Assembly: GCA_964400105.1 (NCBI GenBank)
Contig: CAYNTG010000004.1
Coordinates: forward strand, 1 to 56,435
DNA length: 56,435 nucleotides
Source: an uncultured bacterium
GTDB lineage: Bacteria; UBP14; UBA6098
Reading direction: 5' to 3'
Below are positions 87-19,268 of this stretch, in pieces; within the stretch, counting starts at the first letter, position 1, and each line of letters starts with the position of its first letter. A program made the translations under genes and the position numbers. The notes under the pieces were generated by a model. The model saw nothing but the letters and a program-made list of their open reading frames with translations, searched no databases and was not told the DNA's origin.

Positions 87-524
87 ATGAGGATTGACTC
101 AAATACCGTCTCCGGCGATTATTCCTTTGCCTTCGGACGGTCGGTTTCCGTAAGTTCTGATTATATAGCCGCGTTTTTCAGTTCTTCGTATAAGGGCAAA
201 CTCGGCATAAACGAACCCGACCCGCACTCCACGCTCCATTACGACGGCTCTGAGGCGTCGGCAATAACAGATAGCGATATGAGCTTGGACGATAACGATC
301 ACACTTTGTTCGTTGACGGCGGCGCAGCCGTTACATTACCGGACGCGGATGATTGCCCGGGGCGGATATATTACATAAGGAACACGGATACCTCAAATAG
401 TAGCACCATTACGCCTGATGATTGTGATATCGAAAGGTCAGGAAGCTATACTCTCCCTGCCAATGAAGGTATTATTATCCAAAATGACGGCACAAACTGG
501 TGGATAATAGCCGAGTATGATTGA
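87..524 (+). CDS. hypothetical protein (Gly/Ser/Asp-rich, no signal peptide)
   Basis: 145-aa ORF. It overlaps the next gene by 8 nt, so co-transcription is likely. No assignable catalytic motif. A partial copy of the intergenic repeat (about 33-58) lies just upstream. Confidence 0.4.
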   Translation: MRIDSNTVSGDYSFAFGRSVSVSSDYIAAFFSSSYKGKLGINEPDPHSTLHYDGSEASAITDSDMSLDDNDHTLFVDGGAAVTLPDADDCPGRIYYIRNTDTSNSSTITPDDCDIERSGSYTLPANEGIIIQNDGTNWWIIAEYD

Positions 525-1923
525 TAGGATGGGAACGAGAACCCAAATAAGTTCGTTGGTTACAATATTCGGAATTATCTCATTCGCGATGATTATGCGT
601 GGCCAAGATGTACTTGAGGAAGACATATTTTCCCAAACGCATTGGTTCGATGTAACCCATATGGAGGATACTTTGAGGAACCATGGTTGCACAATCCATT
701 TCACAACCGGACAGGAAGGACGGTCCAGCCTGATGGAAATGGATATATTCTGGATTATGCAACTGAAAGATTCTATTCCGCCATATTTAGGTTTTCCCTA
801 TACGCAAGAAGAAGTCGAATCAATTGTTCATTTCTCACAACAGGGCGGGACAATACTATTTTTCCCAGCGAACTGGATGCAACCTGTTGAAGCAGTTGAT
901 AACGGACTGTTATACGATAGTAGGTGGAAAACTACTGTATATGTTGAAAACAGTAACCCTCTACCCGATGAGGGGAGAGATATTTATGATATATTCGTTT
1001 TCTCACCAATAACGGATTTCGTAGATTCGATGAGAAACGAAAACACGATCAAGCCTATTACCTGCGGAAATCATGCTTATCCATTTGTTTTCTTGGAAAA
1101 TGAATATTTTCTGCCCATAGCCGCTATTAGCTACCCGTTTCTACATCAAGGGAATTATGAATCGAAGATTCTTATAGCAGTAGGTTCGCATATGTGGGAA
1201 ACCTGGTGGCATGATCCGATTATCTGGGACAATATGAAATTCGTATCGAACATTCTCTGCACCGCTGCGGGTTGTGAGGGCTACGAGCTTCCCCCCTGTG
1301 CTGTGCCGGAGCCGTTCGAGATAGGGGTGGATTCGGTGCCGGAGTGCGCAAATCCGGGGGATACGATAACCCTCACCGGTCGCAACCTCTGGCAGGGGAG
1401 CAACGAGAATATCGGCGGCGACATAGAAATCTATTTCTACGGCCCGCAGGATACCGTCGTTATTCCCTTCGAGTATTCCGACCATCGCCCGGATCCGCAT
1501 TCGCTCTACGGCACGTGGCTCAAGTTCGTCTGCCCGGCTTTGCCGGAGGGCGAATACGACGTCGAACTCGGCCATAAAGCGATTACGTTCTACGCTGGGA
1601 AAATCACAATCCCCTGCGATTCACCAGTTTCTCTTTGCCGCCGCTCCCCCAACCCCTTCACCCCGAACGGCGACGGGATAAACGACGAGGCGGAGTTCTC
1701 ATTCCCCGGTCTCGGCGAGGTCGAGGGTGTAATAAAGATTTTCACGCTCGGCAATCTCAAAGTCCGCGAAATCGAAATCCCCGCAGGATGGAGCGCAAAG
1801 GAAACCGCAATATGGGACGGCACGGACAACGCAGGAGAACCGCTGTCGCAAGGAATTTACATTTATACAATCCGTTCCGAAGGAAGAATCAAATGCAAAG
1901 GAACGGTAACTTTAGCAAGATGA
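517..1923 (+). CDS. secreted protein with T9SS type-B (gliding-motility/CHU_C-like) C-terminal sorting domain
   Basis: 468-aa ORF with an N-terminal hydrophobic segment (ISSLVTIFGIISFAMIM). The C-terminus reads SPNPFTPNGDGINDEAEFSF...IWDGTDNAGEPLSQGIYIYTI, which matches the NxFTPNGDGxND signature of the type-B CTD. Confidence 0.75.
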   Translation: MIDRMGTRTQISSLVTIFGIISFAMIMRGQDVLEEDIFSQTHWFDVTHMEDTLRNHGCTIHFTTGQEGRSSLMEMDIFWIMQLKDSIPPYLGFPYTQEEVESIVHFSQQGGTILFFPANWMQPVEAVDNGLLYDSRWKTTVYVENSNPLPDEGRDIYDIFVFSPITDFVDSMRNENTIKPITCGNHAYPFVFLENEYFLPIAAISYPFLHQGNYESKILIAVGSHMWETWWHDPIIWDNMKFVSNILCTAAGCEGYELPPCAVPEPFEIGVDSVPECANPGDTITLTGRNLWQGSNENIGGDIEIYFYGPQDTVVIPFEYSDHRPDPHSLYGTWLKFVCPALPEGEYDVELGHKAITFYAGKITIPCDSPVSLCRRSPNPFTPNGDGINDEAEFSFPGLGEVEGVIKIFTLGNLKVREIEIPAGWSAKETAIWDGTDNAGEPLSQGIYIYTIRSEGRIKCKGTVTLAR

Positions 1924-1946
1924 AAGGAAATATTTAGTAACTCTTA

Positions 1947-2076
1947 TAGATTGCTGAAAAACGAGTGTGAACCTTTACAAAATGATAAAATGATAAAACA
2001 TGCCATTGCCCTGCGGGTCTGAGGACATCGCAATGACAGGCTAATTTCTTGTTTTCTGTCAAAAATCAGCAATCTC
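1947..2076. repeat. MITE-like intergenic repeat, copy A (short form)
   Basis: Termini are tAGATTGCTGA...TCAGCAATCTC (inverted). Long stretches match 47244-47440 nearly base for base (ttgctgaaaaacga.tgtgaa..., gataaaatgataaaacatg, caggctaatttcttgttttctgtcaaaaatcagcaatctc). It lacks about 67 bp of the central part of copy B. Confidence 0.7.
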
Positions 2077-2145
2077 CATCTATATGTTTAGAACAGAGGG
2101 TGGGGAACATGTCCCTTTACCCGACAAAATGAGATTAGATTAACC

Positions 2146-2174
2146 TTGACATATGGTTGTAAGACGCTTAGTTT
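2146..2174 (+). promoter_or_regulatory. candidate sigma70-type promoter of the 1219-aa cargo gene
   Basis: TTGACA (2146-2151), 17-nt spacer, TAGTTT (2169-2174). AGGAGG RBS at 2220-2225 before the ATG at 2231. Confidence 0.35.
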
Positions 2175-2230
2175 AAATGAATAATTAAAGTATTATAAAC
2201 ACTTAAAGTAGAACTTGAACAGGAGGAACT

Positions 2231-5200
2231 ATGCGGTTTAAACTATTCGCCGCTTTAATGATTTTAATGGTGGTTTCCGCCTTTGCACAAGAGTGGGTAA
2301 TCCCTATCGATGTTTATGAACACCCCGATTCCGCTAGAGAGATTGTCGCGCAGACGAGCATCTATGGATCGGATCTCTACGATTCAACCGTTGTGGTCGG
2401 CATAGATTCTTTCTTGATCGACAAAGCCGCACCACCAGCGCCCCCTTCCGGTCTTAGCGCGTTTTTCCCGCTCGACGATCCCTCGTATTCGTTCATCGGA
2501 AAGCTTATGTTCGATGGCCGCAGCGCTTTTGACGATACAATCCTGTGGACGATCCAGTGGGCCGGTGTTACCGCTCTGGATTCCGTCACCGTCGAATGGG
2601 ATCCCTTGGATGTCCCCTCCGGTGGGGTTCTTCTGATCGACACATGCTTTATCGGCTCGGATGTCGCATGGGCTACGGCTCATGACATGTCGTCCGTGTC
2701 GAGCGTTACCGGCAACGGCGTTTTGAACTGGGTTCAGATTCGCTACACCCGCGTAGTTCCCGATGTCGATTCGATGCCGCCTTATTTCACAAATTGGCAT
2801 CCCGCCGACGGCGCGATCGACGTGCCCGAAACCACGACCACCCTTTCGGTCGATATCATGGACGTGATGTCGCCTGTCGATGAATCGAGTATCAGGATGA
2901 ACGTGGCTGGCTTAGATGTCCCGGCCATGTTCCTCAGTATCGCGGATATCGCCGGTGGCAAGAGAGCTTCTGTCAACACAGGCGGTGCGATCGCCATTCC
3001 CCCCGGCTCGACCATCGTATGTATCGCCTGCGCCGGAGATACGGCCAGAAACTACGATTGCGACACTATTAGCTTCACGACCCACGATACTCTAACGACG
3101 ATATATTGCGTCGAGGGCACGGTCGGCGTCGGCGGATACACCGACCTTTCCGGCTCGATCGCCATCGTTGGCGCATATCACGATTCGACCGACGCTTCCG
3201 GCTATTACGAGGTCTGTGCGCCGGAGGGTTCCTATATGCTATATGTTCTCACGATGGACGGCCGCACCGATTCCGTCGAAATCGACCTCAATTCCAACAT
3301 GACGCACAACTTCAGCTTCCCGCAGATAATCGGCGATATCTCCGGCACCGTTCTTCTGGACGGCGAGACCGACCATTCGGGCACGATCGTTACGGAGTCG
3401 GAGTCCGGCGCATCGACTACTACCGCCGTTACGGGAGCATACACGCTCACCGATGTCGATTTCGGAACGGTCTATGTTTCGGCGGCGCACGCCGGTTTCG
3501 AGTCGAAGACGGATACATTCGACCTGACATCGGACACGTCCGGCGTGGACTTCCTGCTGTTCCCATTGACCTCTTATTACAACGTTTCGGGAACGCTTAC
3601 CCTCGAGGGTGAAACAGTCCATTCGGGCATCGCGGTCGATCTTTCGGACGGCCTCACCTTCGATGAGAGCACCATTACCAACGCCGCCGGATACTTCGAT
3701 TTCGACTCGGTTCCCGCAGGCGGCTATACACTCGGAGCAAACTACATCGGCTTCGAGGATTTCGACACCAGCCTCACTGTTGTTGCGGATGTTGTCGTTA
3801 TCGGAATGCTCGAGGAGGAGTCTTCGGTCATGTTCAACCCACCGACGAACGTTCAATCGACGACGCGGCCATGCTGGCCCGGCGCGTTTAATGTCGTAAC
3901 ATGGGACGCTCCGATGATGGCCGACACCGTGAAGCTTGCGCATTGCAGCGCCCGGGGATATGGCGATACCCGCTGGGGCGGATTCTCCACCTATTACGGT
4001 TATGGCTGGATCGGCGGCGGTTATTCGATGCCCTTCGTCGCACCCGAGGACGATATGACGCTCTCGAAGGTTCGGATCGCGCTGCATCCCTCCTCTTACG
4101 GCATAACCACGATGATCGGCGTTTGGTCGGAAGATCCCGATTCCGGCGGTCCTGGAACAATGATTACACACTTCACCGGCGCGCTTAACGACACCGTCGA
4201 TGGATGGGCGTATATCGATGTCCCGGACGTTACGGTCGGCACCGATCCCTTCTTCGTCGGTTGGATCGATCAGATGGACAGCCCGAGTATTGCGTATGTT
4301 ATGATGGATTATACCTCTCCCGATACGCTCGCATGGGTGCATAATGCATACGATAGCATGTGGAACTGGGAAGGCAACAACGTCGATATGGCGGACGGCG
4401 ATTTCGCCATCGAGTGCTATGTCTCCGGCGGTTCAAGCAGGGCCGAAAGCTTCATGAGGCCATCCTATAAAGAGACACTTCAGAGGACGAAGATTCCTAA
4501 CGTCGAAGCCGCTAAAGCGGCACACGAATACGGCTTCCGTCCGATGAGCCTTGAAGGGCCACATGTCGATCTGGCTTCGGCCACGGCTCCTTCGCCGAGA
4601 ATGAGGCCCGCAGAAATGCCGACGAGCTATCTACTTTATAGAGATACCGCGCCGTTCACGGATACCTCGGTCGCCGATTTCGTTATCGAACTCGACGACA
4701 CGATGCCATATTATCTCGACGCAACTTCGATCGACGATGTTATCTACTATTACGGTATGATCGCCGTTTATCCGGGCGGAATGAGCGACCTTTCCGAACT
4801 CGCAAAGGGCTACAATCGCAACCCGCCGGCGGCAACGAACGTTCTTCTCATCGACTGGTGCGGCGGATGGCAAATGGACAGTCTCCATCGGGAATGGGAT
4901 TCCTCTGATACGCTCGTTACGCTTCTCTCCGATGTCGGATTCACCGGCGATTCGCTCTATGTAACCCGCGAGCAGGAAAGGCTTTATGGTTATATCCTCG
5001 CCGACTCGGTCTCGCCTCTATACGATCTGATTATCGTAACATGGTCGCCGTTCAGCGCCAGCGGCTGGCTCGGCCCGAGGCCGCGCGGCCCGGAGTGGCG
5101 CAAGCTCGACGATTATCTTCGCAAGGGCGGCAACCTCTTCATCGAGGGCGCCGACGCGATGGAGATCCTCTCCGGCGATGGATACGCGATGAACCGTTAC

Positions 5201-5890
5201 GACTCGCTTTACTTGCAGTTCGGCGTGAACTTCCGGGACGGCGGAATCGCCAGCCTCGATACGGGCAATGTCCGCCAGCTTACCAGTACACCATCTCTGT
5301 TCAGCGGAGCCGATACGGTCGATTATTCGCTTTCGACTATCGCCGACTACGGTCTCGACGAGTTCGAGCACCAGATGGGCACCGGAGCCGTTACGGTTCT
5401 CTGGTCGCAGCTTATCGGCCCGATGCCGCATGAATCGAACGGTCGTGGAGTTTGGTTCAACAACGGCCTTCGAAAGACCTATGTCCAAAGCCCTTATTTC
5501 GGCGCGATAATAAATATCCCCACTGTGGGCAGCAAAGAGATCATGTTCGCCGAGATGCTCGACGGCTTCGGCGTTAATCCGGTCGTTCAAGAGACCAAGA
5601 CATCGCTTCCCGGCGAGATGACGCTATTTGCGAACATCCCGAACCCGTTCAACGCGAAGACGGAGATCGTCTTCGATATCGAGCGCCCGTGCGAGGTCGA
5701 TCTCTCCATCTATAACATGATGGGCCAGAAGGTCTCGACGCTGGTTTCCGGGATGTCCAAACCAGGCATCCGGAGTGTCGTTTGGGACGGCGCGGACTTC
5801 TCCGGCCACGAGGTCGAATCGGGCGTCTATTTCTACCGACTCGAAACCGATGCCGGAAGCATCACAAAGAGAATGGTTCTACTCAAGTAG
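2231..5890 (+). CDS. large secreted multidomain T9SS cargo protein (unassigned N-terminal module, Ig-like, 3x CarboxypepD_reg-like, FN3-like, pre-CTD module, type-A CTD)
   Basis: 1219 aa with signal peptide MRFKLFAALMILMVVSAFAQE. Repeated G-T-V/L..G......G..V segments (e.g. ISGTVLLDGETDHSGTIV, VSGTLTLEGETVHSGIAV). C-terminus NIPNPFNAKTEIVFDI...LSIYNMMGQKV...WDG...SGVYFYRL...MVLLK is the Por_Secre_tail/type-A CTD pattern. Confidence 0.85.
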   Translation: MRFKLFAALMILMVVSAFAQEWVIPIDVYEHPDSAREIVAQTSIYGSDLYDSTVVVGIDSFLIDKAAPPAPPSGLSAFFPLDDPSYSFIGKLMFDGRSAFDDTILWTIQWAGVTALDSVTVEWDPLDVPSGGVLLIDTCFIGSDVAWATAHDMSSVSSVTGNGVLNWVQIRYTRVVPDVDSMPPYFTNWHPADGAIDVPETTTTLSVDIMDVMSPVDESSIRMNVAGLDVPAMFLSIADIAGGKRASVNTGGAIAIPPGSTIVCIACAGDTARNYDCDTISFTTHDTLTTIYCVEGTVGVGGYTDLSGSIAIVGAYHDSTDASGYYEVCAPEGSYMLYVLTMDGRTDSVEIDLNSNMTHNFSFPQIIGDISGTVLLDGETDHSGTIVTESESGASTTTAVTGAYTLTDVDFGTVYVSAAHAGFESKTDTFDLTSDTSGVDFLLFPLTSYYNVSGTLTLEGETVHSGIAVDLSDGLTFDESTITNAAGYFDFDSVPAGGYTLGANYIGFEDFDTSLTVVADVVVIGMLEEESSVMFNPPTNVQSTTRPCWPGAFNVVTWDAPMMADTVKLAHCSARGYGDTRWGGFSTYYGYGWIGGGYSMPFVAPEDDMTLSKVRIALHPSSYGITTMIGVWSEDPDSGGPGTMITHFTGALNDTVDGWAYIDVPDVTVGTDPFFVGWIDQMDSPSIAYVMMDYTSPDTLAWVHNAYDSMWNWEGNNVDMADGDFAIECYVSGGSSRAESFMRPSYKETLQRTKIPNVEAAKAAHEYGFRPMSLEGPHVDLASATAPSPRMRPAEMPTSYLLYRDTAPFTDTSVADFVIELDDTMPYYLDATSIDDVIYYYGMIAVYPGGMSDLSELAKGYNRNPPAATNVLLIDWCGGWQMDSLHREWDSSDTLVTLLSDVGFTGDSLYVTREQERLYGYILADSVSPLYDLIIVTWSPFSASGWLGPRPRGPEWRKLDDYLRKGGNLFIEGADAMEILSGDGYAMNRYDSLYLQFGVNFRDGGIASLDTGNVRQLTSTPSLFSGADTVDYSLSTIADYGLDEFEHQMGTGAVTVLWSQLIGPMPHESNGRGVWFNNGLRKTYVQSPYFGAIINIPTVGSKEIMFAEMLDGFGVNPVVQETKTSLPGEMTLFANIPNPFNAKTEIVFDIERPCEVDLSIYNMMGQKVSTLVSGMSKPGIRSVVWDGADFSGHEVESGVYFYRLETDAGSITKRMVLLK

Positions 5891-5899
5891 AGCATTTCC

Positions 5900-5934
5900 G
5901 GGGAACCTCTCGTTCGAGGGGTTCCCCAATTTTG
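5900..5934 (+). terminator. rho-independent terminator
   Basis: GGGGAACCTCTC-gttc-GAGGGGTTCCCC, a 12-bp stem with one G.U, followed by AATTTTG. It starts 10 nt after the stop codon. Confidence 0.7.
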
Positions 5935-6092
5935 AGATCGCTAAAAAACAGAGGGGGGTTTTAGCGAATAATTTTTAGAAAAGTCATTGCAATGTCCTCA
6001 GACCTGTAGAACAGAGCGATGCAATCTCGAACTTTTACAGTCGAATTTGGCGATCCATATTTTTTGATTATTTTATCATTTTGGTTTAAGGT
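5934..6092. repeat. MITE-like intergenic repeat, copy C (inverted orientation, degenerate, truncated at its right end)
   Basis: gagatcgctaaaaaac resembles the reverse complement of the right terminus. gtcattgcaatgtcctcagacc is the reverse complement of ggtctgaggacatcgcaatgac in copy A. gattattttatcattttggtttaaggtt matches the reverse complement of the gataaaatgataaaa part. Confidence 0.55.
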
Positions 6093-6117
6093 TTTAACCC
6101 TTAAAAAAGGGGGCAAA

Positions 6118-9100
6118 ATGGAACTTTCATTTAAGTCGATTGCTATCGCGATACTCGCCATCGGTTTGGTATGTTTCGCCGAGCCGTGGACGGCAGACCT
6201 CACTTTAACCGACGGAAGCTACACGCTCGATCTGACCTTCGGTCGCCTCGACGGCGCACTCGATCTTCTCGACGGCGAGGACGATGTTTTGGCTATTCCT
6301 CCGCCGACCGGCTCCTACGCCTATTTCGAGCTTGACGACCCGGCTAATCCTTATATAACGATGCTCTATGGGGATATTCGGCCCGACGACGGCGACAGCG
6401 CTCTCTGGGTCGCGCACCTCATATCGGCGGCGGCTTCGCTCGATGCAAGCTGGATTCCGGCGCTTCTTCCGCCGGGTGATTTCCATATCGGCGCGCACTA
6501 TCCGCTCGAGGATGTCACCGAATGGGTGAACATGAAAGAGGTCGCGACACTCGATTATTCCATAGGAATGGTCCTGGACATCGTTCACGACCCCGACGGC
6601 TACTATCCCGAAGATTCGCCGGTCTTCTCGAACTGGTATCCATACGACGGCGCAACCGCTATTCCTGTCACGGGCACTATTCGGTTCGATGTTACGGACG
6701 AGGGAAGCGGAATCGATCCTGCGAGCATCGAGATGACAGTCGATGGCGCGGATGTTTCGGCAGAGATCGAGCTTTCGCCCATCGAGGGCGGATATCGCGT
6801 CACATACGATCCACCATCGCCGCTTCACGGCGAGTCGTGGATTTCCGTCATCGTTTCGGCTGCGGATAACGCCTATGTTCCCAATGTAAGCTCGGATGTC
6901 ATCGCTTTCCGGACTGGCTATTCGATAGAGCCGGTGCTCTGGGAAATCCCTTTGACCGCATATAACATCGACGGGACGGACACGGGCTTCAGCGATATTT
7001 CTCTCGGCGCGGACCCGGATGCCGAAGCGACATTCGATATGGGTTACGACATCCTTTTCCCGATGGCTCCGCCGACTGTATTTTATGCCTTCTTCCCTCT
7101 CGACGACCCGGATTATCCGTTCTATACAATGCTTTCCAGAGATATTCGTTCGTCCGATTTGTTCTTCGACGAATGGCCGCTTCGATTCGGTAATACGGAC
7201 GATATTATCGGCGTGAAATGGGACACGGACGACATCCCATCCGACAAGGACGCCTTTATCGCGGTTACGTTCATATCGGTCTATCCAGAAGAAGGCGACT
7301 GGTGGGACATGACGGTCATCGACCATATCGATTTCGGTCCGGGGCGACAGGCCTGGATCAAGGTGCTGAGTCCCTCAGGGGACACGCTCTCGCCGCAGGT
7401 CGTGTTCACCGATCCCGCCGATGGCGAGACCGGGGTGGCGGTCTCCACGGAGATATGGGCGGGTATCGTCGATGCCGGCGGCGGAGTCGATCCGACGTCG
7501 ATCACGATGCTGGTCGATGGCGTCGATGCTTCGCCATATCTGATAATTTCACATTCATCCGAAACGACATTCGTCAGATATATACCCTCCGCAGACTTCG
7601 ATCCGCTTCACACGGCCGAGGTTACTATCGGCGTGGACGATCTCGCCGATCCGCCGAACCATGCGGATTATACATGGCATTTCGTCACCGGGTATTTCCT
7701 CACGCCCGCATGGATGGGTTCTTTGTTCGTTTGGACAGACGAGCCGGAGGAACCGCTCAGGCATTTCTCGCTTTTCTTCGGCGCGGATTCGATGGCAACG
7801 GATTCGTTCGACTATGGTCTCGATCAGCAGCAGCCGCCAGCGCCGCCCGGAGATACGCCATATGGATTTTTCCAGATCGAGGACGATATGTGGGGCCGGC
7901 TCAGCAGGGATATTCGATCTTCTGAAGACGACGATATTATGTGGGTCGCTATGATGATGCGCATCCCGGTGGACGATGAGATCGACAGCTGGATCGACTG
8001 GGATTCGGATTGCCTGCCGGAGGACGGAAGCTTCCATTGTGCATGGTGGATCACCGGCGATACGGTCTGGGAGAACATGCGCACCACCGATCGCGTTGAT
8101 ATATCGACTCCCGGCATCTTCCTGATCCATTTCACGCGCGGCGTTCCACCGACCTATTGCGTCGCGGGAACCGTGCAAACCGGCGAAGGCGACCCTATCG
8201 AGGGCGCATCCGTTTGGATTTCCGAAGAGCTTAACGCTATCTCGGACAGCATCGGATTTTATGAGATTTGCGGAGTTACTATCGGAGAATGGACGATTAT
8301 CACCTCGCTCGAAGACTATTCGACCGATTCGACCAACATATATTTCGACGCCGACCAGATGTATAACCCCGTTCTTTATCCGGTTATCGTTCCAAGCGCC
8401 ACGGTTCACGGGATGATCTCCTGTAGCGATGGCGGCGACCCCGAAGGCGCGATGGTTATCCTCGACGGCGACACGACTTATGCCGACTCGACCGGTTATT
8501 ACGCCTTCGAAGAAGTTCCCGACGGCATATACACGATGTTCGTGTCTCTCGAATATTATGTTACACAGGAGCGCGAGATTTCCGTGGACGCACCCGATAT
8601 CACCGAGGATTTCGTGCTGGACAGGCAGGTCGGACGCATCGTCGGAACGATCACGCTCTCCGATGATCCGCCGAATCTTTCCGGCACTGCGATTGAATTG
8701 ATCGGCACGTCGATACCGGCGGTCTATACAAATTCCGACGGCGAGTATCTTATCTCCGACGTTCCATTTGGCGAATACGATGTCAGGATTAGCCGAACCA
8801 GCTATGCTACTTTGGACACGACCTTCTCGCTATTGGTCGCCGAGGACACGCTCGATGCCGAGCTTCAGTCAGAGTTCGTGCTCAATCCTCCGCGCAACCT
8901 TGCGGGACGCACGCCATACGACAAACGTGTTATCCTCGAATGGGACGAGCCGGAAGCGAGCACCGCGCATCTCGAGGGATATAACGCTTACCGTCAGGTC
9001 GTTTTCTCGGACGACACGCTTCTCGCTTATATTCCCGATCCATACACGGAGTTCGTCGAGTGGGATCGCATAAACTTTATGCCCTATACATATCTCGTAA

Positions 9101-10194
9101 CCGCTGTTTATTCTGAGGGCGAGAGCGAGCCGATCAGCACGACCACCTGGCTCAACCCGGACTCATCGACCGCCGACATCCTTATCTGGGATTACGATAA
9201 CGGCGCGTTGCTCGCCAATCAGGGCGATATGGACGAGGCGGAGTTCCTTCGCCAACGGATATCGGTTTATGACCTCGAGGTCGCGGTGACCTCGCAGGAC
9301 CAGAACCTTCCCGATGTGGATTTCTTTGCATATCGCGCGATCATTCTCCTCACCGGAATCGACGACGATACCGATGCGGTGCCGAATAATCCGAGTATAA
9401 ACAGGCTCACGCGATATATCGTTGCCGGTGGAAGGGTCTATAGCGAGGGCGCGGATTTCGGTTACGATTTTGGCCGCGAGGCCAGCCCGACAGCGCGCAA
9501 AAACCTATTTAGACTATTCGGCGCGACCTACGCTGCAGACGGATATACCAGAACGAGCGGAAATGTCCAATCGCTATTAGGCGAAAATACATCCTTCTTC
9601 AGGGAGGGTGTCGTGAATATCGGCTACGACTTCCAGGGAGCGGCCGATCAGCGCATCGACGAATGGGACACGACCGAGATCGCCGAGGGAACCACATGGG
9701 CGATGTTCTCACAAGACGATCCGGCGCCGCTTTTAAGCCCGCTTCGGATGGTCTATCGGGAGATGTATGCTTGGAAGACGGTTCTGTCGAGCGTCTATAT
9801 CGGCGCGATGAACGACATAGCGCCGCCATCGACGCGCCAGTATGTCATCGCCGCAATCCTCAACTTCCTGTTGGGAACGGACTACCGCCTCATCGAGGAG
9901 TCGAAGTATAGGCTCCCGGAGAACCTCGCGATTGCAGCATCGCCGAACCCATTCAACGCGGCCTCTAAACTTTCACTAGAGATCGACGAGCCTGGTCGCG
10001 TCGTGCTGACGATTTTCGACATCACCGGCAGGCCGGTAACGACTCTCTCGGACGGATATGTCGCGGCGGGATTCTACTCCGCAACATGGGATGGAACCTC
10101 CATCTCCGGGACCAAGCTCCCGAGCGGGATTTATTTCGCAATTCTAAAGCACGGCGACCGGGTCGTGCGGACGAATATGACGCTGATTAAATAG
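6118..10194 (+). CDS. large secreted multidomain T9SS cargo protein, paralogue of 2231-5890 (3x unassigned module, Ig-like, CarboxypepD_reg-like, FN3, pre-CTD module, type-A CTD)
   Basis: The ORF track starts at 6019, but that N-terminus lies inside the repeat. ATG 6118 follows AAGGGGG and gives signal peptide MELSFKSIAIAILAIGLVCFA. FN3-like NPPRNLAG...VILEWDEP...YNAYRQ...YTYLVTAVYSEGESEP. CTD ASPNPFNAASKLSLEI...LTIFDITGRPV...WDG...SGIYFAIL...MTLIK. Confidence 0.85.
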   Translation: MELSFKSIAIAILAIGLVCFAEPWTADLTLTDGSYTLDLTFGRLDGALDLLDGEDDVLAIPPPTGSYAYFELDDPANPYITMLYGDIRPDDGDSALWVAHLISAAASLDASWIPALLPPGDFHIGAHYPLEDVTEWVNMKEVATLDYSIGMVLDIVHDPDGYYPEDSPVFSNWYPYDGATAIPVTGTIRFDVTDEGSGIDPASIEMTVDGADVSAEIELSPIEGGYRVTYDPPSPLHGESWISVIVSAADNAYVPNVSSDVIAFRTGYSIEPVLWEIPLTAYNIDGTDTGFSDISLGADPDAEATFDMGYDILFPMAPPTVFYAFFPLDDPDYPFYTMLSRDIRSSDLFFDEWPLRFGNTDDIIGVKWDTDDIPSDKDAFIAVTFISVYPEEGDWWDMTVIDHIDFGPGRQAWIKVLSPSGDTLSPQVVFTDPADGETGVAVSTEIWAGIVDAGGGVDPTSITMLVDGVDASPYLIISHSSETTFVRYIPSADFDPLHTAEVTIGVDDLADPPNHADYTWHFVTGYFLTPAWMGSLFVWTDEPEEPLRHFSLFFGADSMATDSFDYGLDQQQPPAPPGDTPYGFFQIEDDMWGRLSRDIRSSEDDDIMWVAMMMRIPVDDEIDSWIDWDSDCLPEDGSFHCAWWITGDTVWENMRTTDRVDISTPGIFLIHFTRGVPPTYCVAGTVQTGEGDPIEGASVWISEELNAISDSIGFYEICGVTIGEWTIITSLEDYSTDSTNIYFDADQMYNPVLYPVIVPSATVHGMISCSDGGDPEGAMVILDGDTTYADSTGYYAFEEVPDGIYTMFVSLEYYVTQEREISVDAPDITEDFVLDRQVGRIVGTITLSDDPPNLSGTAIELIGTSIPAVYTNSDGEYLISDVPFGEYDVRISRTSYATLDTTFSLLVAEDTLDAELQSEFVLNPPRNLAGRTPYDKRVILEWDEPEASTAHLEGYNAYRQVVFSDDTLLAYIPDPYTEFVEWDRINFMPYTYLVTAVYSEGESEPISTTTWLNPDSSTADILIWDYDNGALLANQGDMDEAEFLRQRISVYDLEVAVTSQDQNLPDVDFFAYRAIILLTGIDDDTDAVPNNPSINRLTRYIVAGGRVYSEGADFGYDFGREASPTARKNLFRLFGATYAADGYTRTSGNVQSLLGENTSFFREGVVNIGYDFQGAADQRIDEWDTTEIAEGTTWAMFSQDDPAPLLSPLRMVYREMYAWKTVLSSVYIGAMNDIAPPSTRQYVIAAILNFLLGTDYRLIEESKYRLPENLAIAASPNPFNAASKLSLEIDEPGRVVLTIFDITGRPVTTLSDGYVAAGFYSATWDGTSISGTKLPSGIYFAILKHGDRVVRTNMTLIK

Positions 10195-13356: not shown

Positions 13357-13513
13357 ATATGGGGAGGGTCTTAGGCCCTCCCGCGACGTAGCGACACCGA
13401 CAGAAACCATTTTTCGCGGCCCCGGCGGCAAAATCGCCCTTGCATTGCGTAAAACCAGAAGATATATTTACATCGTTATTCACCGATATTCAATTTGGGA
13501 AAAAAGGAATAAG

Positions 13514-14737
13514 ATGGGCAAGGTAAAAGATAATACCGAAATCCAGGGATTGACGCATTTTCATGTCCGGGGTTTTAAATCTATATACAATGCTTCTATC
13601 GAACCCGGTTATCTAAATGTGATAATCGGTGCGAACGGTGCGGGAAAATCGAATCTTCTCGAAGCTCTTGGAGTGATGGGGTCAGCCGTTTATGGTTCGA
13701 TAGATCAAGATACTTTGGAACGTCGTGGCGTTAGATTAGGGAAACCCGCTATCTATAAATCCGCGTTTAAAAGCGAAAAGCTCAGGCCATTTATTACATT
13801 AGAAGCTAAATGGAAAGAAAACGAGACGGATGTTTGCTATAGGATCGGTATGGGTAACCCATTGAAGCAACCACAGAAGAGGTGGTATTACAAAACAGAG
13901 AGTTTGGAGATAAACGGTAAACCTAAGGTTACAAGAAGTCCACGGTCGGGAGCTATATTTGGAGAAAAAAAAGAATTAGATCCGTTCAAAGGCCTTGTGG
14001 CGCTTGCACGAGTGGATAAAGATTTTTCAGAACAGGCTTCTGCATTTTTAAATGCTCTGGAGGACTACGTTATTTATATGCCGACAACACCAGTATTGCG
14101 CGGCGTTCAACAGGATGGACTCGGTATATACGGTGGAAATCTACCCGCAGCGGTATTAGAGATTATACGTATGCATCATAATCGCCAGATTGATCTCAAT
14201 ATAGTATTTCCGCTTATTGATTGGATGGAGACTTTCAGCTCCGGTATTGCCCCAGATATAACTAAACCACCTGATAATTCTGTTTCAAAGCGCACAGTTA
14301 CTTTCACCGATAAATACATGAGAAAAGGAAGGAATATTTTAACCTCATACGACGCGAGCGAAGGAGCTTTATTCGTTCTTTTCCTTTTATCCGCTATTTA
14401 TAGCAAAAAAATGCCGAGAATGTTCGCTATCGATAATTTCGATTCCGGAATCAACCCCAGGTTATTGAAGGACATTGTAGGGATTGTCTCTAACATACTT
14501 ATTAAGAAAAACACGGAAGGCAAGCAAGTATTTCTTACGTGTCACAATCCACTCGTATTAGACGGGTTGCCTCTCTACGACGATAGAATCCGTTTATTCG
14601 CATTAGACAGGGATAAAAAGGGCCGAACGACTATTACGCGAATAGAAGTAGACGAATCCCTTTATAAAGATAACGATGTTCCCTTATCTACCCTTTGGAC
14701 AATGGGCGCAATTGGTGGTGTTCCCAAGGGGTTTTAA
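13514..14737 (+). CDS. ABC-type (AAA_15/AAA_21-like, RecF/SMC-like) ATPase, candidate defence-module subunit A
   Basis: The ORF track starts at TTG 13445. ATG 13514 with an AAGGA RBS is preferred (407 aa). Walker A GANGAGKS (K45), signature-like SEG (282-284), Walker-B-like MFAID307-N308, H-loop-like TCH344NP. Visibly AT-richer than its neighbours. Confidence 0.8.
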   Translation: MGKVKDNTEIQGLTHFHVRGFKSIYNASIEPGYLNVIIGANGAGKSNLLEALGVMGSAVYGSIDQDTLERRGVRLGKPAIYKSAFKSEKLRPFITLEAKWKENETDVCYRIGMGNPLKQPQKRWYYKTESLEINGKPKVTRSPRSGAIFGEKKELDPFKGLVALARVDKDFSEQASAFLNALEDYVIYMPTTPVLRGVQQDGLGIYGGNLPAAVLEIIRMHHNRQIDLNIVFPLIDWMETFSSGIAPDITKPPDNSVSKRTVTFTDKYMRKGRNILTSYDASEGALFVLFLLSAIYSKKMPRMFAIDNFDSGINPRLLKDIVGIVSNILIKKNTEGKQVFLTCHNPLVLDGLPLYDDRIRLFALDRDKKGRTTITRIEVDESLYKDNDVPLSTLWTMGAIGGVPKGF

Positions 14738-15432
14738 TGAAGCATGTTAAACTGATAATGGAGGGAACTACCGATTGGGCCTATTTTAAGCCTTTTATCG
14801 AAGCTGTTGTCGGTGAGGAAATAGAATACGATCCCTTAAATCCTAATTTAGATAGAGCCACAGAAAAACATGATCGAGAATCAAAGGGGTGCCTAGGCGT
14901 AAAGAGAATGTGCGAGAAGCTTGGGGGTGGTTTTCTCAGGATTATTGATTATGTTAAGAACCCTCCTTGTGATGCTATAGTTATTCACCTTGACGCAGAT
15001 GTAGCCGGGAGATCAGATTTTCAAAGTATGGGTGTTCGAAATTGCCCCTGTCCACCCGCAATTGACACATGCAATTCAATTAGAGAACTCGTAAAAGAAT
15101 GGATAGGTTACGACGCAAACGACGATCTTTTTAAGAAAATAATTATTGTGATTCCCTCAAAGGCTACCGAAGCGTGGTTAGGAATTATCGATAACGGTCT
15201 TTTTATAAACGAGTGCACTAAAGATCCCGCGGGTGAATTAGTGAAAGCTGGTAAATTGAAAAACGATCGAAATGAGGAAGGCAAAATCATAAAGCACTCA
15301 TGGCAATTTGCGCAGTATGCCAAAAAACATTTCGTTAATAATCCCGGCCAATCGATATCTAAACTCGAGGGCGTCAGCGAGGAAGCAAGTAATTTCATTA
15401 TTTCATTGAGGAGTGTTTTAAGTAGCCGATAA
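14737..15432 (+). CDS. Toprim-signature protein (DUF4276-like by recollection), candidate defence-module subunit B
   Basis: The ORF track starts at 14695. ATG 14737 overlaps the upstream TAA by 1 nt (TAATG). 231 aa. KLIMEGTTD (E9-G-x-x-D13) and IHLDADVAG (D86-x-D88-x-x-G91) match the two Toprim motifs. SKATEAWLG occurs later. Cys cluster NCPCPPAIDTC. Confidence 0.6.
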   Translation: MKHVKLIMEGTTDWAYFKPFIEAVVGEEIEYDPLNPNLDRATEKHDRESKGCLGVKRMCEKLGGGFLRIIDYVKNPPCDAIVIHLDADVAGRSDFQSMGVRNCPCPPAIDTCNSIRELVKEWIGYDANDDLFKKIIIVIPSKATEAWLGIIDNGLFINECTKDPAGELVKAGKLKNDRNEEGKIIKHSWQFAQYAKKHFVNNPGQSISKLEGVSEEASNFIISLRSVLSSR

Positions 15433-15505
15433 CGATAGGATCGCCCGTACGAATCGAATTGAAAATTTGGCCGTAGGGGTCGGGGAAATCGGCTCCGTGG
15501 CCGAC

Positions 15506-15552
15506 GTCGGGCCGGACCGTGCTAAATCGCATGAACCGTGGTCCGGCCCGAC
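15506..15552. other. long GC-rich hairpin in the islet/DUF1015 spacer
   Basis: GTCGGGCCGGACC (15506-15518) pairs perfectly with GGTCCGGCCCGAC (15540-15552), with a 21-nt loop. There is no T tract. It lies in a GC-rich ~170-bp segment that contrasts with the AT-rich genes to the left. Confidence 0.5.
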
Positions 15553-15695
15553 GGCCCGACAAGCCATGCTCATCGGCCGACACCCAATCACCCTGGATAC
15601 CAAACAATAATCGTTCAAAATCCCCTTTACATTTCCACTTTGGTAGATAATTTATTGATTCGATCTCGAATCTTATTAAATCGAAAGGAAATATA

Positions 15696-17186: not shown

Positions 17187-17246
17187 TTGGAGCTAACAAA
17201 CTCCGCCGGTGAACGACACAGGATGATCCCCAAATGGAAGGTTTCG

Positions 17247-18575
17247 ATGCCTCGCAAAAAAAGGCTATTCGTGATCGACACGAACGTCGTTCTACACGAT
17301 CATACAGCAATTTACAACTTTGAGGAGCACGATGTTGTAATTCCCATCGTGGTGCTCGAAGAACTCGATCATTTTAAAAAGGGCAACTCTCTCTTAAATT
17401 TCGAGGCGCGCGAATTCATTCGGAAGCTGGACGAGATCGCGGGCGACAAGCTTTTCACAAAGGGAATTTCCCTCGGAAAGGGTCGCGGCAAGCTATTCGT
17501 CGAGATGAGCAATCCAAATTCCGGCTTGGTCAGCAAAATATTCACCGAAAACAAACCGGATAATCGAATTTTAGCGCTTGCTGCGGAGCTTCAAACGACC
17601 CGCAAAGACCGCGACGTCATCCTCATATCGAAGGATATCAACCTTCGGATGAAGGCGAAGAGCATCGGTATTCAGGCCGAGGACTACGAAACGGGCAAGA
17701 TCGACAATATCGATCAGCTTTACACTGGCAGCGAAATCTTGACCGGCTTCGACAAAGCGATTATCTCGAGATTTTATGAACCGCCTTTCAGCGTGCCGGT
17801 CGATGAGCTTGGTTTGACAAAGGACCCCGTTCCAAATCAATATTTTATCCTGAAAAACGGATCGGCCAGCGTTCTTGCATATTACAACCATTCCGAGGGG
17901 GTCTGCGAACGCATCGATCGAAAAAGCGCCTATGGCATCGAACCGCGCAACGCCGAGCAAACCTTCGCGCTCGATGCTTTAACCAGGTCTGATATTAAGC
18001 TCGTAACCCTCACCGGCAGGGCCGGCACCGGCAAAACGCTTCTTGCTCTCGCGGCGGCGCTCCACCAAAGAAAGCGATACAGCCAGATATTCCTTGCGAG
18101 ACCGGTTGTGCCTTTGGGAAACCGCGATTTGGGCTTTCTTCCGGGCGATGTCGAGGATAAGCTCGCGCCGTATATGCAGCCACTCTACGATAATCTCGCG
18201 GTGATAAGACACCAATTCGAGCCGGAAAGCCTGGATAATCGGCGCATCGACCGGATGATCGATTCGGATAAGCTTACGATCTCCCCGTTGGCATATATTC
18301 GCGGACGCAGCCTCGATAAGATATTCTTCATCGTCGATGAGGCCCAAAACCTCACGCCGCACGAGGTGAAAACGATCATTACGCGCGTCGGAGAGGGAGC
18401 AAAAATCGTATTCAACGGAGACATTTACCAAATAGATACCCCTTATCTCGATACAAGGTCGAACGGATTGACATATCTCGTCGATAGGATGAAAGGCCAG
18501 GAGATATTCGGCCACGTCAATCTCGTTAAAGGCGAACGGAGCAAACTGGCGGATTTGGCAAGTAATTTGCTCTAA
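17247..18575 (+). CDS. phoH2: PhoH2/YlaK-type PIN-domain + PhoH-like ATPase
   Basis: The ORF track starts at 17187, just downstream of the predicted -10 box (17181-17186). ATG 17247 gives MPRKKRLFVIDTNVVLHD (PIN N-terminus). Walker A GRAGTGKT, Walker B FFIVDEAQN, PhoH-like C-terminus. Confidence 0.85.
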   Translation: MPRKKRLFVIDTNVVLHDHTAIYNFEEHDVVIPIVVLEELDHFKKGNSLLNFEAREFIRKLDEIAGDKLFTKGISLGKGRGKLFVEMSNPNSGLVSKIFTENKPDNRILALAAELQTTRKDRDVILISKDINLRMKAKSIGIQAEDYETGKIDNIDQLYTGSEILTGFDKAIISRFYEPPFSVPVDELGLTKDPVPNQYFILKNGSASVLAYYNHSEGVCERIDRKSAYGIEPRNAEQTFALDALTRSDIKLVTLTGRAGTGKTLLALAAALHQRKRYSQIFLARPVVPLGNRDLGFLPGDVEDKLAPYMQPLYDNLAVIRHQFEPESLDNRRIDRMIDSDKLTISPLAYIRGRSLDKIFFIVDEAQNLTPHEVKTIITRVGEGAKIVFNGDIYQIDTPYLDTRSNGLTYLVDRMKGQEIFGHVNLVKGERSKLADLASNLL

Positions 18576-18785: not shown

Positions 18786-19268
18786 ATGTCTGTATCGATA
18801 GATAAAGAAGGCGCACTGATATTCCTGCGCTTCGTTGAGAAGCTGATTTTGCTCGTGTCAAAATACGGTGGCGCGGGAAAAACCGTGAATATCATCCGTA
18901 AAAATAACTACTATGCTCATATCCTTAAAAACCCACCGGAGAACCCGATAGCCGGGATTACAACCTATGCAGGAATGATAGAGAAAATCCAACTTCCAAA
19001 GGAACCAACAATCGCAATTATGCTCTCCGGAAAAGGCCCGACGATCGATTCCGATTTTTATAAACAACCGGTCGAGGTTTATTATATTATCGAGGATAAT
19101 GTTAAGGAAGTCTCACAGGACGCCAAGATTGTTATCGAAAACGGAGGCTTTCGATATACCCGGCCGAGGGTCGGAGACCCGATAATCGATCTCTCCGTCA
19201 AAGGGATCGATAAGCTCGCGCAGCTTATATACCTCGATCTCAAGAGGATGATCGAGCGCGGATACTGA
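18786..19268 (+). CDS. hypothetical protein (AT-rich orphan)
   Basis: 160-aa ORF with no recognisable motif, signal peptide or TM segment. It is AT-richer than surrounding genes. A possible TTGCAA-16-TAAAAT promoter lies about 60 nt upstream. Confidence 0.45.
   Translation: MSVSIDKEGALIFLRFVEKLILLVSKYGGAGKTVNIIRKNNYYAHILKNPPENPIAGITTYAGMIEKIQLPKEPTIAIMLSGKGPTIDSDFYKQPVEVYYIIEDNVKEVSQDAKIVIENGGFRYTRPRVGDPIIDLSVKGIDKLAQLIYLDLKRMIERGY

Follow-up and report, generated by a model that had tools for sequence, protein, structure and literature searches.

A compositionally foreign ABC ATPase and Toprim-like gene pair of the PDC-M31 type as a candidate defence cassette in an uncultured bacterium

Introduction

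What could be the function of two AT-rich, tightly coupled genes lodged among housekeeping genes of clearly different composition? The question is raised by a locus of an uncultured bacterium (GTDB lineage Bacteria; UBP14; UBA6098), found in contig CAYNTG010000004.1 of the assembly GCA_964400105.1. The whole stretch analysed, hereafter referred to as "the window", comprises 56,435 nucleotides (positions 1 to 56,435 of the forward strand). A first-pass annotation, made from the letters alone, had singled out in it a two-gene islet encoding an ABC-type ATPase (gene A) and a small protein with Toprim signatures (gene B), and had proposed it as a compositionally foreign candidate defence module with the logic of PARIS, i.e., an ATPase accompanied by a separate Toprim partner. 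With moderate confidence, we read this islet as a horizontally acquired two-gene cassette of the PDC-M31 type, in which an ATPase would gate a Toprim-like effector acting through abortive infection.

Such a cassette is not a stranger to the field, as PDC-M31 is an already catalogued candidate family within the well-known class of ABC ATPase plus Toprim systems. The additions made here are small: the proposed assignment of PDC-M31B to the Toprim clan, a D-N variant of the Walker B motif in the ATPase, a conserved Cys/His cluster in its partner, and a direct repeat flanking the islet.

Results

Gene structure and base composition

Gene A extends from 13514 to 14737 on the plus strand and encodes 407 residues, being the ATG form of a 430-aa open reading frame (ORF) started by TTG in the six-frame list; gene B (14737-15432, plus strand) encodes 231 residues from the ATG at 14737. 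Both ORFs and the one-base overlap described in the first-pass annotation were confirmed, the stop codon TAA of gene A and the start codon of gene B sharing position 14737 in the string TAATG (GGTTTTAATGAAG). Shine-Dalgarno-like sequences lie 4-5 nt before each ATG (AAGGAA at 13504-13509 for gene A, AAGGGG at 14726-14731 for gene B), the coupling junction on the plus strand (14726-14739) consisting of AAGGGG followed by TAATG. Identical proteins of 407 and 231 aa appear among the public gene calls of four other contigs of the same population. Two minus-strand ORFs (15398-15607 and 15418-15618) were treated as spurious because public gene callers did not call them in the same region. A scan for sigma-70-type promoters gave two hits, both within gene B, where 4.7 were expected, and recognised none upstream of gene A.

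The pair stands out from the rest of the window by its composition. Measured in windows, GC drops from 0.54-0.60 within hppA to 0.39-0.43 over the two genes, whose own GC contents (0.416 for A and 0.405 for B) compare with 0.528±0.032 for the remaining genes of the window. At third codon positions (GC3) the values are 0.390 for gene A (z -4.1) and 0.366 for gene B (z -4.6), against 0.609±0.053 for the other 29 large ORFs; both genes have the lowest GC3 and the least typical synonymous codon usage among the 31 genes of the window. The AT-richness of the pair relative to its flanks, first seen by eye, is hence borne out by windowed GC, GC3 and codon usage, and the proposal of a foreign islet and candidate defence module agrees with both the atypical GC3 and the PDC-M31 matches described below.

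Gene A, a Rad50/SMC-head-type ABC ATPase

Gene A (13514-14737, plus strand) is detected by the Pfam family AAA_21 (PF13304) with an E-value of 1.6e-23 and 84.7 bits (gathering threshold 27), with further sub-threshold Pfam matches of its N-terminus to SMC_N, AAA_23 and AAA_15. The AlphaFold2 (AF2) model, built on 59 homologues, reached a pLDDT (predicted local distance difference test) of 90.0 and a predicted TM-score (pTM) of 0.91, and ends at residue 407 without a Toprim domain. Foldseek aligned it, with probability 1.0 and E-values from 1e-12 to 1e-10, to Rad50 and SMC heads (1e-12), to retron-associated and Septu PtuA proteins and to the Thermus OLD nuclease, in line with the earlier assignment to RecF/SMC-like ABC ATPases of the AAA_15/AAA_21 layout seen in PtuA and OLD. 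At the level of sequence, the matches of the family profile to Protein Data Bank (PDB) entries are confined to the P-loop region; for this reason gene A is described as a compact Rad50/SMC-head-type ABC ATPase without a close solved relative.

All the motifs that had been read from its translation stand at the proposed residues, and were found to be invariant or at least 90% kept in 59-120 homologues: the Walker A motif G39ANGAGKS46 (K45), the signature YDASEGAL at 279-286 (S282EG284), the Walker B motif MFAID307, and the H-loop T342-C-H344-N-P (T342-x-H344-N-P in the family). In ABC ATPases, the residue that follows the Walker B Asp is normally the catalytic Glu. Gene A reads D-N-F-D at residues 307-310 (window 14434-14443), with Asn308 where that Glu is expected and D310 two residues further on. 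Asn308 is kept in at least 90% of 59 aligned relatives, the canonical catalytic Glu thus missing family-wide. The C-terminal tail of gene A is conserved too (LSxLWxxGxxGGxP). Since Asn308 stands in for the catalytic Glu, the sequence suggests that gene A is probably an ATP-binding switch, in which hydrolysis would be slow or absent.

Profile matches to PDC-M31

The PADLOC search recommended in the first-pass annotation placed both proteins in the same candidate system. Gene A matches the PDC-M31A model of PADLOC-DB 2.0 over nearly its whole length (E 9.8e-125, 414.8 bits, residues 15-405 on model positions 4-394 of 395), and gene B matches PDC-M31B with E 1.7e-18 (PDLC04573, PDLC04571) and, for a third model, 4.3e-5; all 54 aligned relatives of gene B also match PDC-M31B. 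The companion Pfam search returned AAA_21 for gene A and no match for gene B. On these profile matches, both window proteins are members of PDC-M31, and their A-then-B order, adjacency and common strand are those of the catalogued arrangement FAM_00005>>FAM_00304. PDC-M31 is one of 145 catalogued phage defence candidates (PDCs), listed in a supplementary table as cassette CAS_00126 (FAM_00005>>FAM_00304) with 102 RefSeq instances (Payne et al., 2024, preprint, 10.1101/2024.01.29.577857). According to the same source, PDCs were chosen for homologues embedded in BREX, DISARM or type I restriction-modification (RM) systems, and the ATPase family FAM_00005 also occurs in HEC-01, PDC-M07 and PDC-M29 (Payne et al., 2024, 10.1101/2024.01.29.577857). 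PDC-M31 is set apart there from HEC-01, and the retrieved passages carry no domain annotation for the B family (Payne et al., 2024, 10.1101/2024.01.29.577857). The supposition that a pair of an AAA_21 ATPase and a DUF4276-type protein would be uncharted has therefore to be withdrawn: PDC-M31 is catalogued, MADS3-4, AbiL and the HEC-01 class have been described, and HEC-01 has been tested.

Gene B, a small Toprim-like protein

Relatives of gene B (14737-15432, plus strand), a putative metal-dependent nuclease, were scarce or abundant depending on the search. A word-indexed search of 5.8 billion proteins yielded only two, HMMER scanning of all 1.84 billion cluster representatives 159, and a profile made from B and the partners of A homologues 411 matches. 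Gene B belongs to a small divergent sub-branch, with 25-27% identity to the bulk of the PDC-M31B family and nearest relatives at 65% and 44%. Its motifs are E9-G-T-T-D13, H84-L-D86-A-D88, C103-P-C105-P-P and S141KATEAW147. Conservation was counted on 259 family members aligned to the family hidden Markov model (HMM). E9 is kept in 241 of the 242 members with a residue at that position, D86 in 257/257, and an acidic residue (E or D) occupies position 145 in 255 of 257; position 88 is D in 208 members and S in 40. Further near-invariant residues are G10, D13, H84, W147, C59, C105-P106-P107 and E159-C160. The two Toprim signatures recognised in the first reading are consequently present at the residues proposed, with E9, D86 and D88 conserved, although no significant structure match accompanies them.

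The Cys cluster noted in the first reading is also present in gene B, but from its NCPCPPAIDTC region C105 alone is kept family-wide, together with C59, C160 and H84. The codons of C59, H84, C105 and C160 lie at 14911-14913, 14986-14988, 15049-15051 and 15214-15216, and the four residues are near-invariant in the main PDC-M31B clade; C59, H84 and C105 are absent from divergent, plasmid-borne members. This Cys/His cluster could be a zinc site or form disulfides, and recalls the zinc-binding elements of the Toprim proteins RecR and DnaG.

The predicted fold places the acidic residues where a Toprim domain would have them. The AF2 model of gene B (pLDDT 85.6, pTM 0.85) shows four beta-alpha units with strands at residues 2-7, 29-33, 80-84 and 135-138; E9 stands past the first strand, D86-x-D88 past the third and E145 past the fourth. 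A Glu after strand 1 and a DxD after strand 3 is the arrangement given for Toprim domains in the Menshen paper. By E-value, the top Foldseek matches of the model were generic Rossmann-like folds. By TM-score or probability, at E-values above 1e-3, the best match in BFVD was an RloB-like protein (TM 0.47/0.51, probability 0.91) and the best by TM-score in the PDB was 2P62, the hypothetical protein PH0156 (TMq 0.42, probability 0.69). Both have antecedents in the field: 2P62 has been reported as the top HHpred match of a lactococcal PARIS AriB (DUF4435), and RloB has been reported as related to OLD-type Toprim proteins, by HHpred in a toxin-antitoxin study and by structure and profile analysis in the Menshen paper.

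Homology through relatives points to the same clan. PADLOC model PDLC04210 of HEC-01B is matched by 32 of the 54 aligned relatives of gene B (best E 3.8e-6), and HEC-01B is described as TOPRIM-like with a conserved metal site (Payne et al., 2024, 10.1101/2024.01.29.577857). The family member encoded by the Acinetobacter plasmid pALWEK1.3 (L166_B; family HMM E 1.3e-17, PDC-M31B 4e-14) aligns to Pfam DUF4276 (PF14103) over model positions 1-192 with E 1.5e-4 and 22.5 bits, below the 30.2-bit threshold, and additionally matches RloB (4.7e-3) and PADLOC AbiLii (4.3e-4). Two other family members match DUF4276 with E-values of 0.01 and 0.056, the former also matching OLD-like_TOPRIM (0.19); among the 54 aligned relatives, one matches DUF4276 (E 0.089). 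Membership of gene B itself in Pfam DUF4276 was rejected, as it gave no match at E<=1 (gathering threshold 30.2 bits); the SKATEAWLG stretch once taken as typical of DUF4276 is there (S141KATEAW147), but the family does not detect the protein. Broadly, the evidence for a Toprim-like protein is convergent but below threshold, consisting of where the motifs lie, the order of the predicted strands and homology by way of relatives, with no significant structure match. Gene B very probably falls within the OLD-type Toprim clan as a divergent member, with DUF4276, RloB and AbiLii as sister groups, and is included in none of those Pfam families.

The pair in other hosts and replicons

The pairing of the two genes was followed in 12 other loci, the population of the window being left out: seven in metagenomes or genomes, three on plasmids and two on IMG/VR contigs. 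It is obligate in this sample, a homologue of A being followed by a same-strand B-family protein of 211-254 aa in 12/12. At the A/B junction, the two genes overlap (-8, -4 or -1 nt) or are separated by 12 nt or less in 11 of 12 loci (window included); in the remaining one, L004, a run of N interrupts the sequence there (1039-1057), because of which the database protein P0002 is N-terminally truncated. L004 is also the closest relative of the pair (83% identity for A, 64% for B), with a pair GC of 0.41 against 0.575 in its flanks. In 11/12 loci, the window again included, the pair exceeds its flanks in AT content, and the neighbouring genes differ from locus to locus: competence genes and DUF2089, polysaccharide synthesis, a DUF4258 toxin-antitoxin-like pair, haem synthesis, or a TerD/kinase/PP2C/vWA cluster. 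An AT-rich pair amid unrelated neighbours is what characterises a mobile accessory cassette.

Conjugative or mobilizable plasmids and three IMG/VR contigs carry the pair. It is the main cargo of the 5.8-kb mobilizable Paracoccus plasmid pMARC2, occurs on the small Acinetobacter plasmid pALWEK1.3, and in a conjugative Enterobacter plasmid adjoins traI, two genes away from a gene with a SAVED domain. In this last case (L164, Enterobacter hormaechei pE5_001, NZ_CP042572.1, 167 kb, positions 3989-8562), the pair lies between traI/dsbA and the SAVED-domain gene, with 42.5% identity for A; its cultivable host would make this copy convenient for experiments. The plasmid copies surfaced only through gene A, a tblastn search of gene B against plasmids having given no match. 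The distribution is patchy, the recorded hosts being Acidobacteriota, Thermodesulfobacteriota, Elusimicrobiota, Planctomycetota, Myxococcota, Spirochaetota, Paenibacillus, cyanobacteria and Proteobacteria.

A 57%-identical sub-branch (L001-L003) presents, on all three contigs, two conserved same-strand ORFs after the pair, of 162 aa and about 255-323 aa, without Pfam match (8208-8696 and 9145-10116 in L001). They are absent from the window, and may be extra components in that lineage.

Boundaries of the islet

The first-pass annotation had reported no flanking direct repeats; this had to be corrected. An 18-nt imperfect direct repeat brackets the pair on the plus strand. Its left copy (CAAAATCGCCCTTGCATT, 13429-13446) stands between the hairpin of hppA and the ATG of gene A, 85 nt upstream of the latter, and its right copy (CAAAATCCCCTTTACATT, 15616-15633) 80 nt upstream of the DUF1015 ATG. 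The copies are identical at 15/18 positions, a value equalled only twice when the two intergenic regions were shuffled 400 times (P about 0.005). No copies beyond these two occur in the 56-kb window, and for this reason a general promoter consensus of the genome was rejected as explanation. In a related locus (L084), whose DUF1015 protein is 84% identical, the upstream alignment with the window starts at 15617 (blastn, MAFFT); because homology to that region begins there, native DNA is taken to begin at the right repeat. The repeat may be either a target-site or promoter duplication produced on insertion, or two copies of one promoter element. The foreign segment spans approximately 13429-15616, i.e., about 2.19 kb, and includes a GC-rich hairpin.

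The GC-rich hairpins noticed on both sides of the pair were confirmed, with dG of -19.7 and -41.9 kcal/mol, respectively. The left one (13362-13382, plus strand; 9-bp stem, z -3.2) stands just past the hppA stop codon (13356), where it probably serves as terminator of hppA and marks the left end of the native DNA; it has no T-run after the stem and was left unflagged by the terminator scan. The right one (15505-15553, plus strand; perfect 14-nt arms, 21-nt loop, z -5.1) falls within the islet, past the stop codon of gene B and before the right repeat, and may be either terminator-like or a recombination scar. It belongs to a GC-rich, strongly structured spacer (15433-15616) within the AT-rich islet, the enclosing intergenic region (15433-15695) folding with z -3.4. 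Rfam matched no family in the whole window, the spacer included, and a dispersed element of the repetitive extragenic palindromic (REP) kind was rejected, as no further copies of the hairpin arm were found beyond chance.

Four further contigs from three other samples, recognised by identical hppA or DUF1015 proteins, all carry the islet with a coding sequence 100% identical, the GC-rich hairpin region varying by single-nucleotide polymorphisms (SNPs) among contigs of this population (L080, L081). Outside it, relatives of DUF1015 (45-84% identity) were located at some 150 loci in GTDB genomes and JGI metagenomes, none of which had an A/B homologue or hppA nearby. In L084 the upstream neighbour of DUF1015 is a divergent membrane protein, and the closest GTDB genome for the window DUF1015 is a Zixibacteria metagenome-assembled genome, at 69%.

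Neighbouring genes

The islet is flanked by pth, the H+-pyrophosphatase gene hppA, DUF1015, a PIN-PhoH fusion and a C26 peptidase, with no methyltransferase or RM genes nearby. Directly downstream of DUF1015, the fusion (17187-18575, plus strand) joins PIN_4 and PhoH, as in PhoH2-type predicted RNA helicase/RNase proteins. Just past it, a 160-aa AT-rich ORF (18786-19268, plus strand; local GC 0.38-0.45), called on contigs of the same population and with no Pfam hit recorded, may be another small acquired gene. Upstream, three consecutive large ORFs of 468, 1219 and 1391 aa (517-10194, plus strand) have the architecture of type IX secretion system (T9SS) cargo; the first two carry CHU_C, FlgD_ig and CarboxypepD_reg, and the counterpart of the third in the same population has similar domains. 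These T9SS-type C-terminal sorting domains, taken with the Zixibacteria match of DUF1015, suggest an under-sampled host that probably belongs to the FCB group.

Discussion

Proposed function and mechanism

As we interpret the data above, the pair would most likely function as a module of the abortive-infection or toxin-antitoxin kind, in which an ATPase would gate a nuclease-type effector. If it behaves like AbiL, PARIS (AriA/AriB) and the validated AAA:TOPRIM_OLD toxin-antitoxin pairs, an oligomer of A would hold B inactive in a complex and act as sensor. A phage-derived trigger, coupled to ATP binding, would then release or activate B, which would cut its substrate (tRNA or DNA), with E9, D86, D88 and E145 providing the metal site. 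The infected cell would stop growing, this being the presumed defence phenotype, i.e., abortive infection.

Several results weigh against this reading. Gene B itself has no match in Pfam, NCBIfam or PHROGs; Foldseek of its model against PDB and BFVD gave 0 matches at E<=1e-3, the profile of its 54 relatives found nothing at E<=10 among all PDB sequences, and hhalign of the gene B profile against P2 Old reached a non-significant probability of 0.3%, in an alignment that sets the EG-TD of gene B on VEGKTE 394-402 of P2 Old. The analogy with PARIS may not transfer, because gene A is devoid of the canonical catalytic Glu. As far as acquisition is concerned, no clean empty hppA-DUF1015 junction was found among the sampled relatives, because the adjacency of both genes is not conserved in any of them; the junction comparison proposed in the first-pass annotation supplied the absence of the pair from the DUF1015 loci, but not the empty site. 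Among the ORFs and Pfam hits beside the islet there is no integrase, as had been noted before, and likewise no transposase or tRNA gene (no tRNA scan was made), nor are there other defence genes. PDC-M31 is itself a bioinformatic candidate without published test or mechanism, named in the supplementary table of Payne et al. (2024) and in the main text of none of the searchable papers. Furthermore, when HEC-01 was first screened in E. coli, the representative used did not protect (Payne et al., 2024, 10.1101/2024.01.29.577857).

The pair might alternatively be mainly a toxin-antitoxin or addiction module stabilising mobile elements, with B as toxin, A as neutralising ATPase, the chromosomal copy as a stranded remnant, and anti-phage activity absent or incidental. 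We regard this as unlikely, in spite of its being the main cargo of small mobilizable plasmids such as Paracoccus pMARC2 (5.8 kb) and Acinetobacter pALWEK1.3, of the validation of AAA + TOPRIM_OLD pairs in toxicity-neutralisation assays, and of the HEC-01 test without phage defence. Addiction is in fact compatible with defence, as the toxin-antitoxin paper reads AAA + TOPRIM_OLD pairs as abortive-infection systems; moreover, PDC-M31 was chosen for homologues embedded in BREX, DISARM or RM systems, another HEC-01 representative did protect in a second study, and no plasmid or prophage genes lie near the islet in the window. A different role for B, that of a non-catalytic Toprim-like adaptor comparable to RecR with the ABC ATPase RecF, would have the pair bind or remodel DNA, in repair or foreign-DNA exclusion, rather than cut it. 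The Rad50/SMC/RecF type of the gene A head, the absence of the catalytic Glu, which fits a clamp or switch, and the conserved cluster C59, H84, C105, C160 of gene B speak for such an adaptor. We nonetheless hold it to be improbable: the acidic residues E9, D86, D88 and E145 are near-invariant, a pattern typical of catalytic members, the relatives of gene B score against the effector-type families AbiLii, RloB, DUF4276 and OLD-like_TOPRIM, and patchy distribution together with foreign composition speaks against housekeeping repair.

It is very improbable, in our view, that the islet is neutral, recently acquired DNA without present function in its host, a cassette heading to decay. Its composition is far from typical, with no sign of amelioration, no sigma-70-type promoter was recognised upstream of gene A (two hits inside gene B, 4.7 expected), and its neighbours are housekeeping genes without partner defence genes, all of which would suit decay. 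Both ORFs are however intact, with every family-conserved catalytic residue, the ribosome-binding sites and the coupling kept, and the coding sequence is 100% identical in the four further contigs from three samples, where the adjacent hairpin region has SNPs. We accordingly retain a PDC-M31-type cassette with an ATPase-gated, Toprim-like effector as the preferred reading.

Within it, the mechanism of PDC-M31 may set it apart as a branch of its own among the ABC ATPase/Toprim immune systems, a prospect that we consider possible but doubtful. The ATPase would then be a D-N latch that binds ATP rather than a motor, the effector a minimal Toprim nuclease of about 230 aa stabilised by a Cys3-His (possibly zinc) cluster, and the substrate or trigger would be unlike those of PARIS. 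The conserved Asn in place of the Walker B Glu and a very small, Cys/His-bearing effector could inform how sensors gate nucleases. On the annotation side, recognising PDC-M31B as Toprim-like would bring an uncharacterised candidate (102 RefSeq instances and several hundred metagenomic clusters) into that clan, and would allow several hundred Pfam-less "hypothetical protein" partners to be labelled as Toprim-like effectors of PDC-M31. The cassette opens no new category of biology.

Comparison with known systems

A system related to the window pair is HEC-01, which shares with it the ATPase family FAM_00005 and the two-gene logic of an ABC ATPase with a separate TOPRIM protein. Gene A matches several HEC-01A models over the full length of these models (E 4.8e-25); gene B matches no HEC-01B model, though, as described above, 32/54 of its relatives match PDLC04210. 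A second study found that a cold-seep representative of HEC-01 protected E. coli against at least one of T4, T5 and T7.

PARIS, a complex of an ABC ATPase with a Toprim nuclease, likewise has adjacent genes for an ATPase of the AAA_15/21 class and a separate Toprim-type effector. The PARIS-like logic proposed in the first-pass annotation holds for this two-gene layout, but the window pair is not PARIS, as gene B matches neither Pfam DUF4435 nor PADLOC AriB. Gene A was also rejected as an AriA: its matches to AriA models have E-values of 7.5e-25 (a generic AAA_21 model of 304 positions) and 1.7e-9 (N-terminal P-loop region only), PDC-M31A being far better at 9.8e-125. Further differences are the size of AriB, about 35 kDa against 231 aa for gene B, and the Asn that gene A carries in place of the Walker B catalytic Glu. 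For PARIS, an AriA-AriB complex, a viral-protein trigger and tRNA cleavage are described, whereas the window pair is known from its sequence and predicted models.

In the PARIS paper, AbiL and MADS3-4 are counted among the ABC ATPase plus Toprim systems alongside PARIS, OLD and Gabija, and DUF4276 and RloB serve as effector annotations. MAD3/MAD4 of MADS, AbiLi/AbiLii and other AAA_21 pairs with DUF4276 or RloB resemble the window pair in combining an ABC ATPase with a small protein of the Toprim clan. Pfam DUF4276 and RloB do not detect gene B, and membership in MADS was rejected, as gene A scores 43 bits against NCBIfam MAD3 (cutoff 420), in its N-terminal region only. In the AAA + TOPRIM_OLD pairs validated by toxicity-neutralisation assays, the Toprim protein is the toxin and the ATPase the antitoxin.

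The OLD proteins (P2 Old, class 1 and class 2 OLD, GajA) join a Toprim nuclease to an ABC ATPase, a combination that the window pair with its Toprim-like gene B resembles, and the gene A model matches the Thermus OLD structure 6P74 with an E-value of 4e-10; OLD family membership was nevertheless rejected, as both parts are fused in OLD and GajA and encoded by two separate ORFs in the window. If the cassette protects against phage, PDC-M31 would be a new, experimentally untouched branch beside OLD, Gabija, PARIS, AbiL, MADS3-4 and HEC-01.

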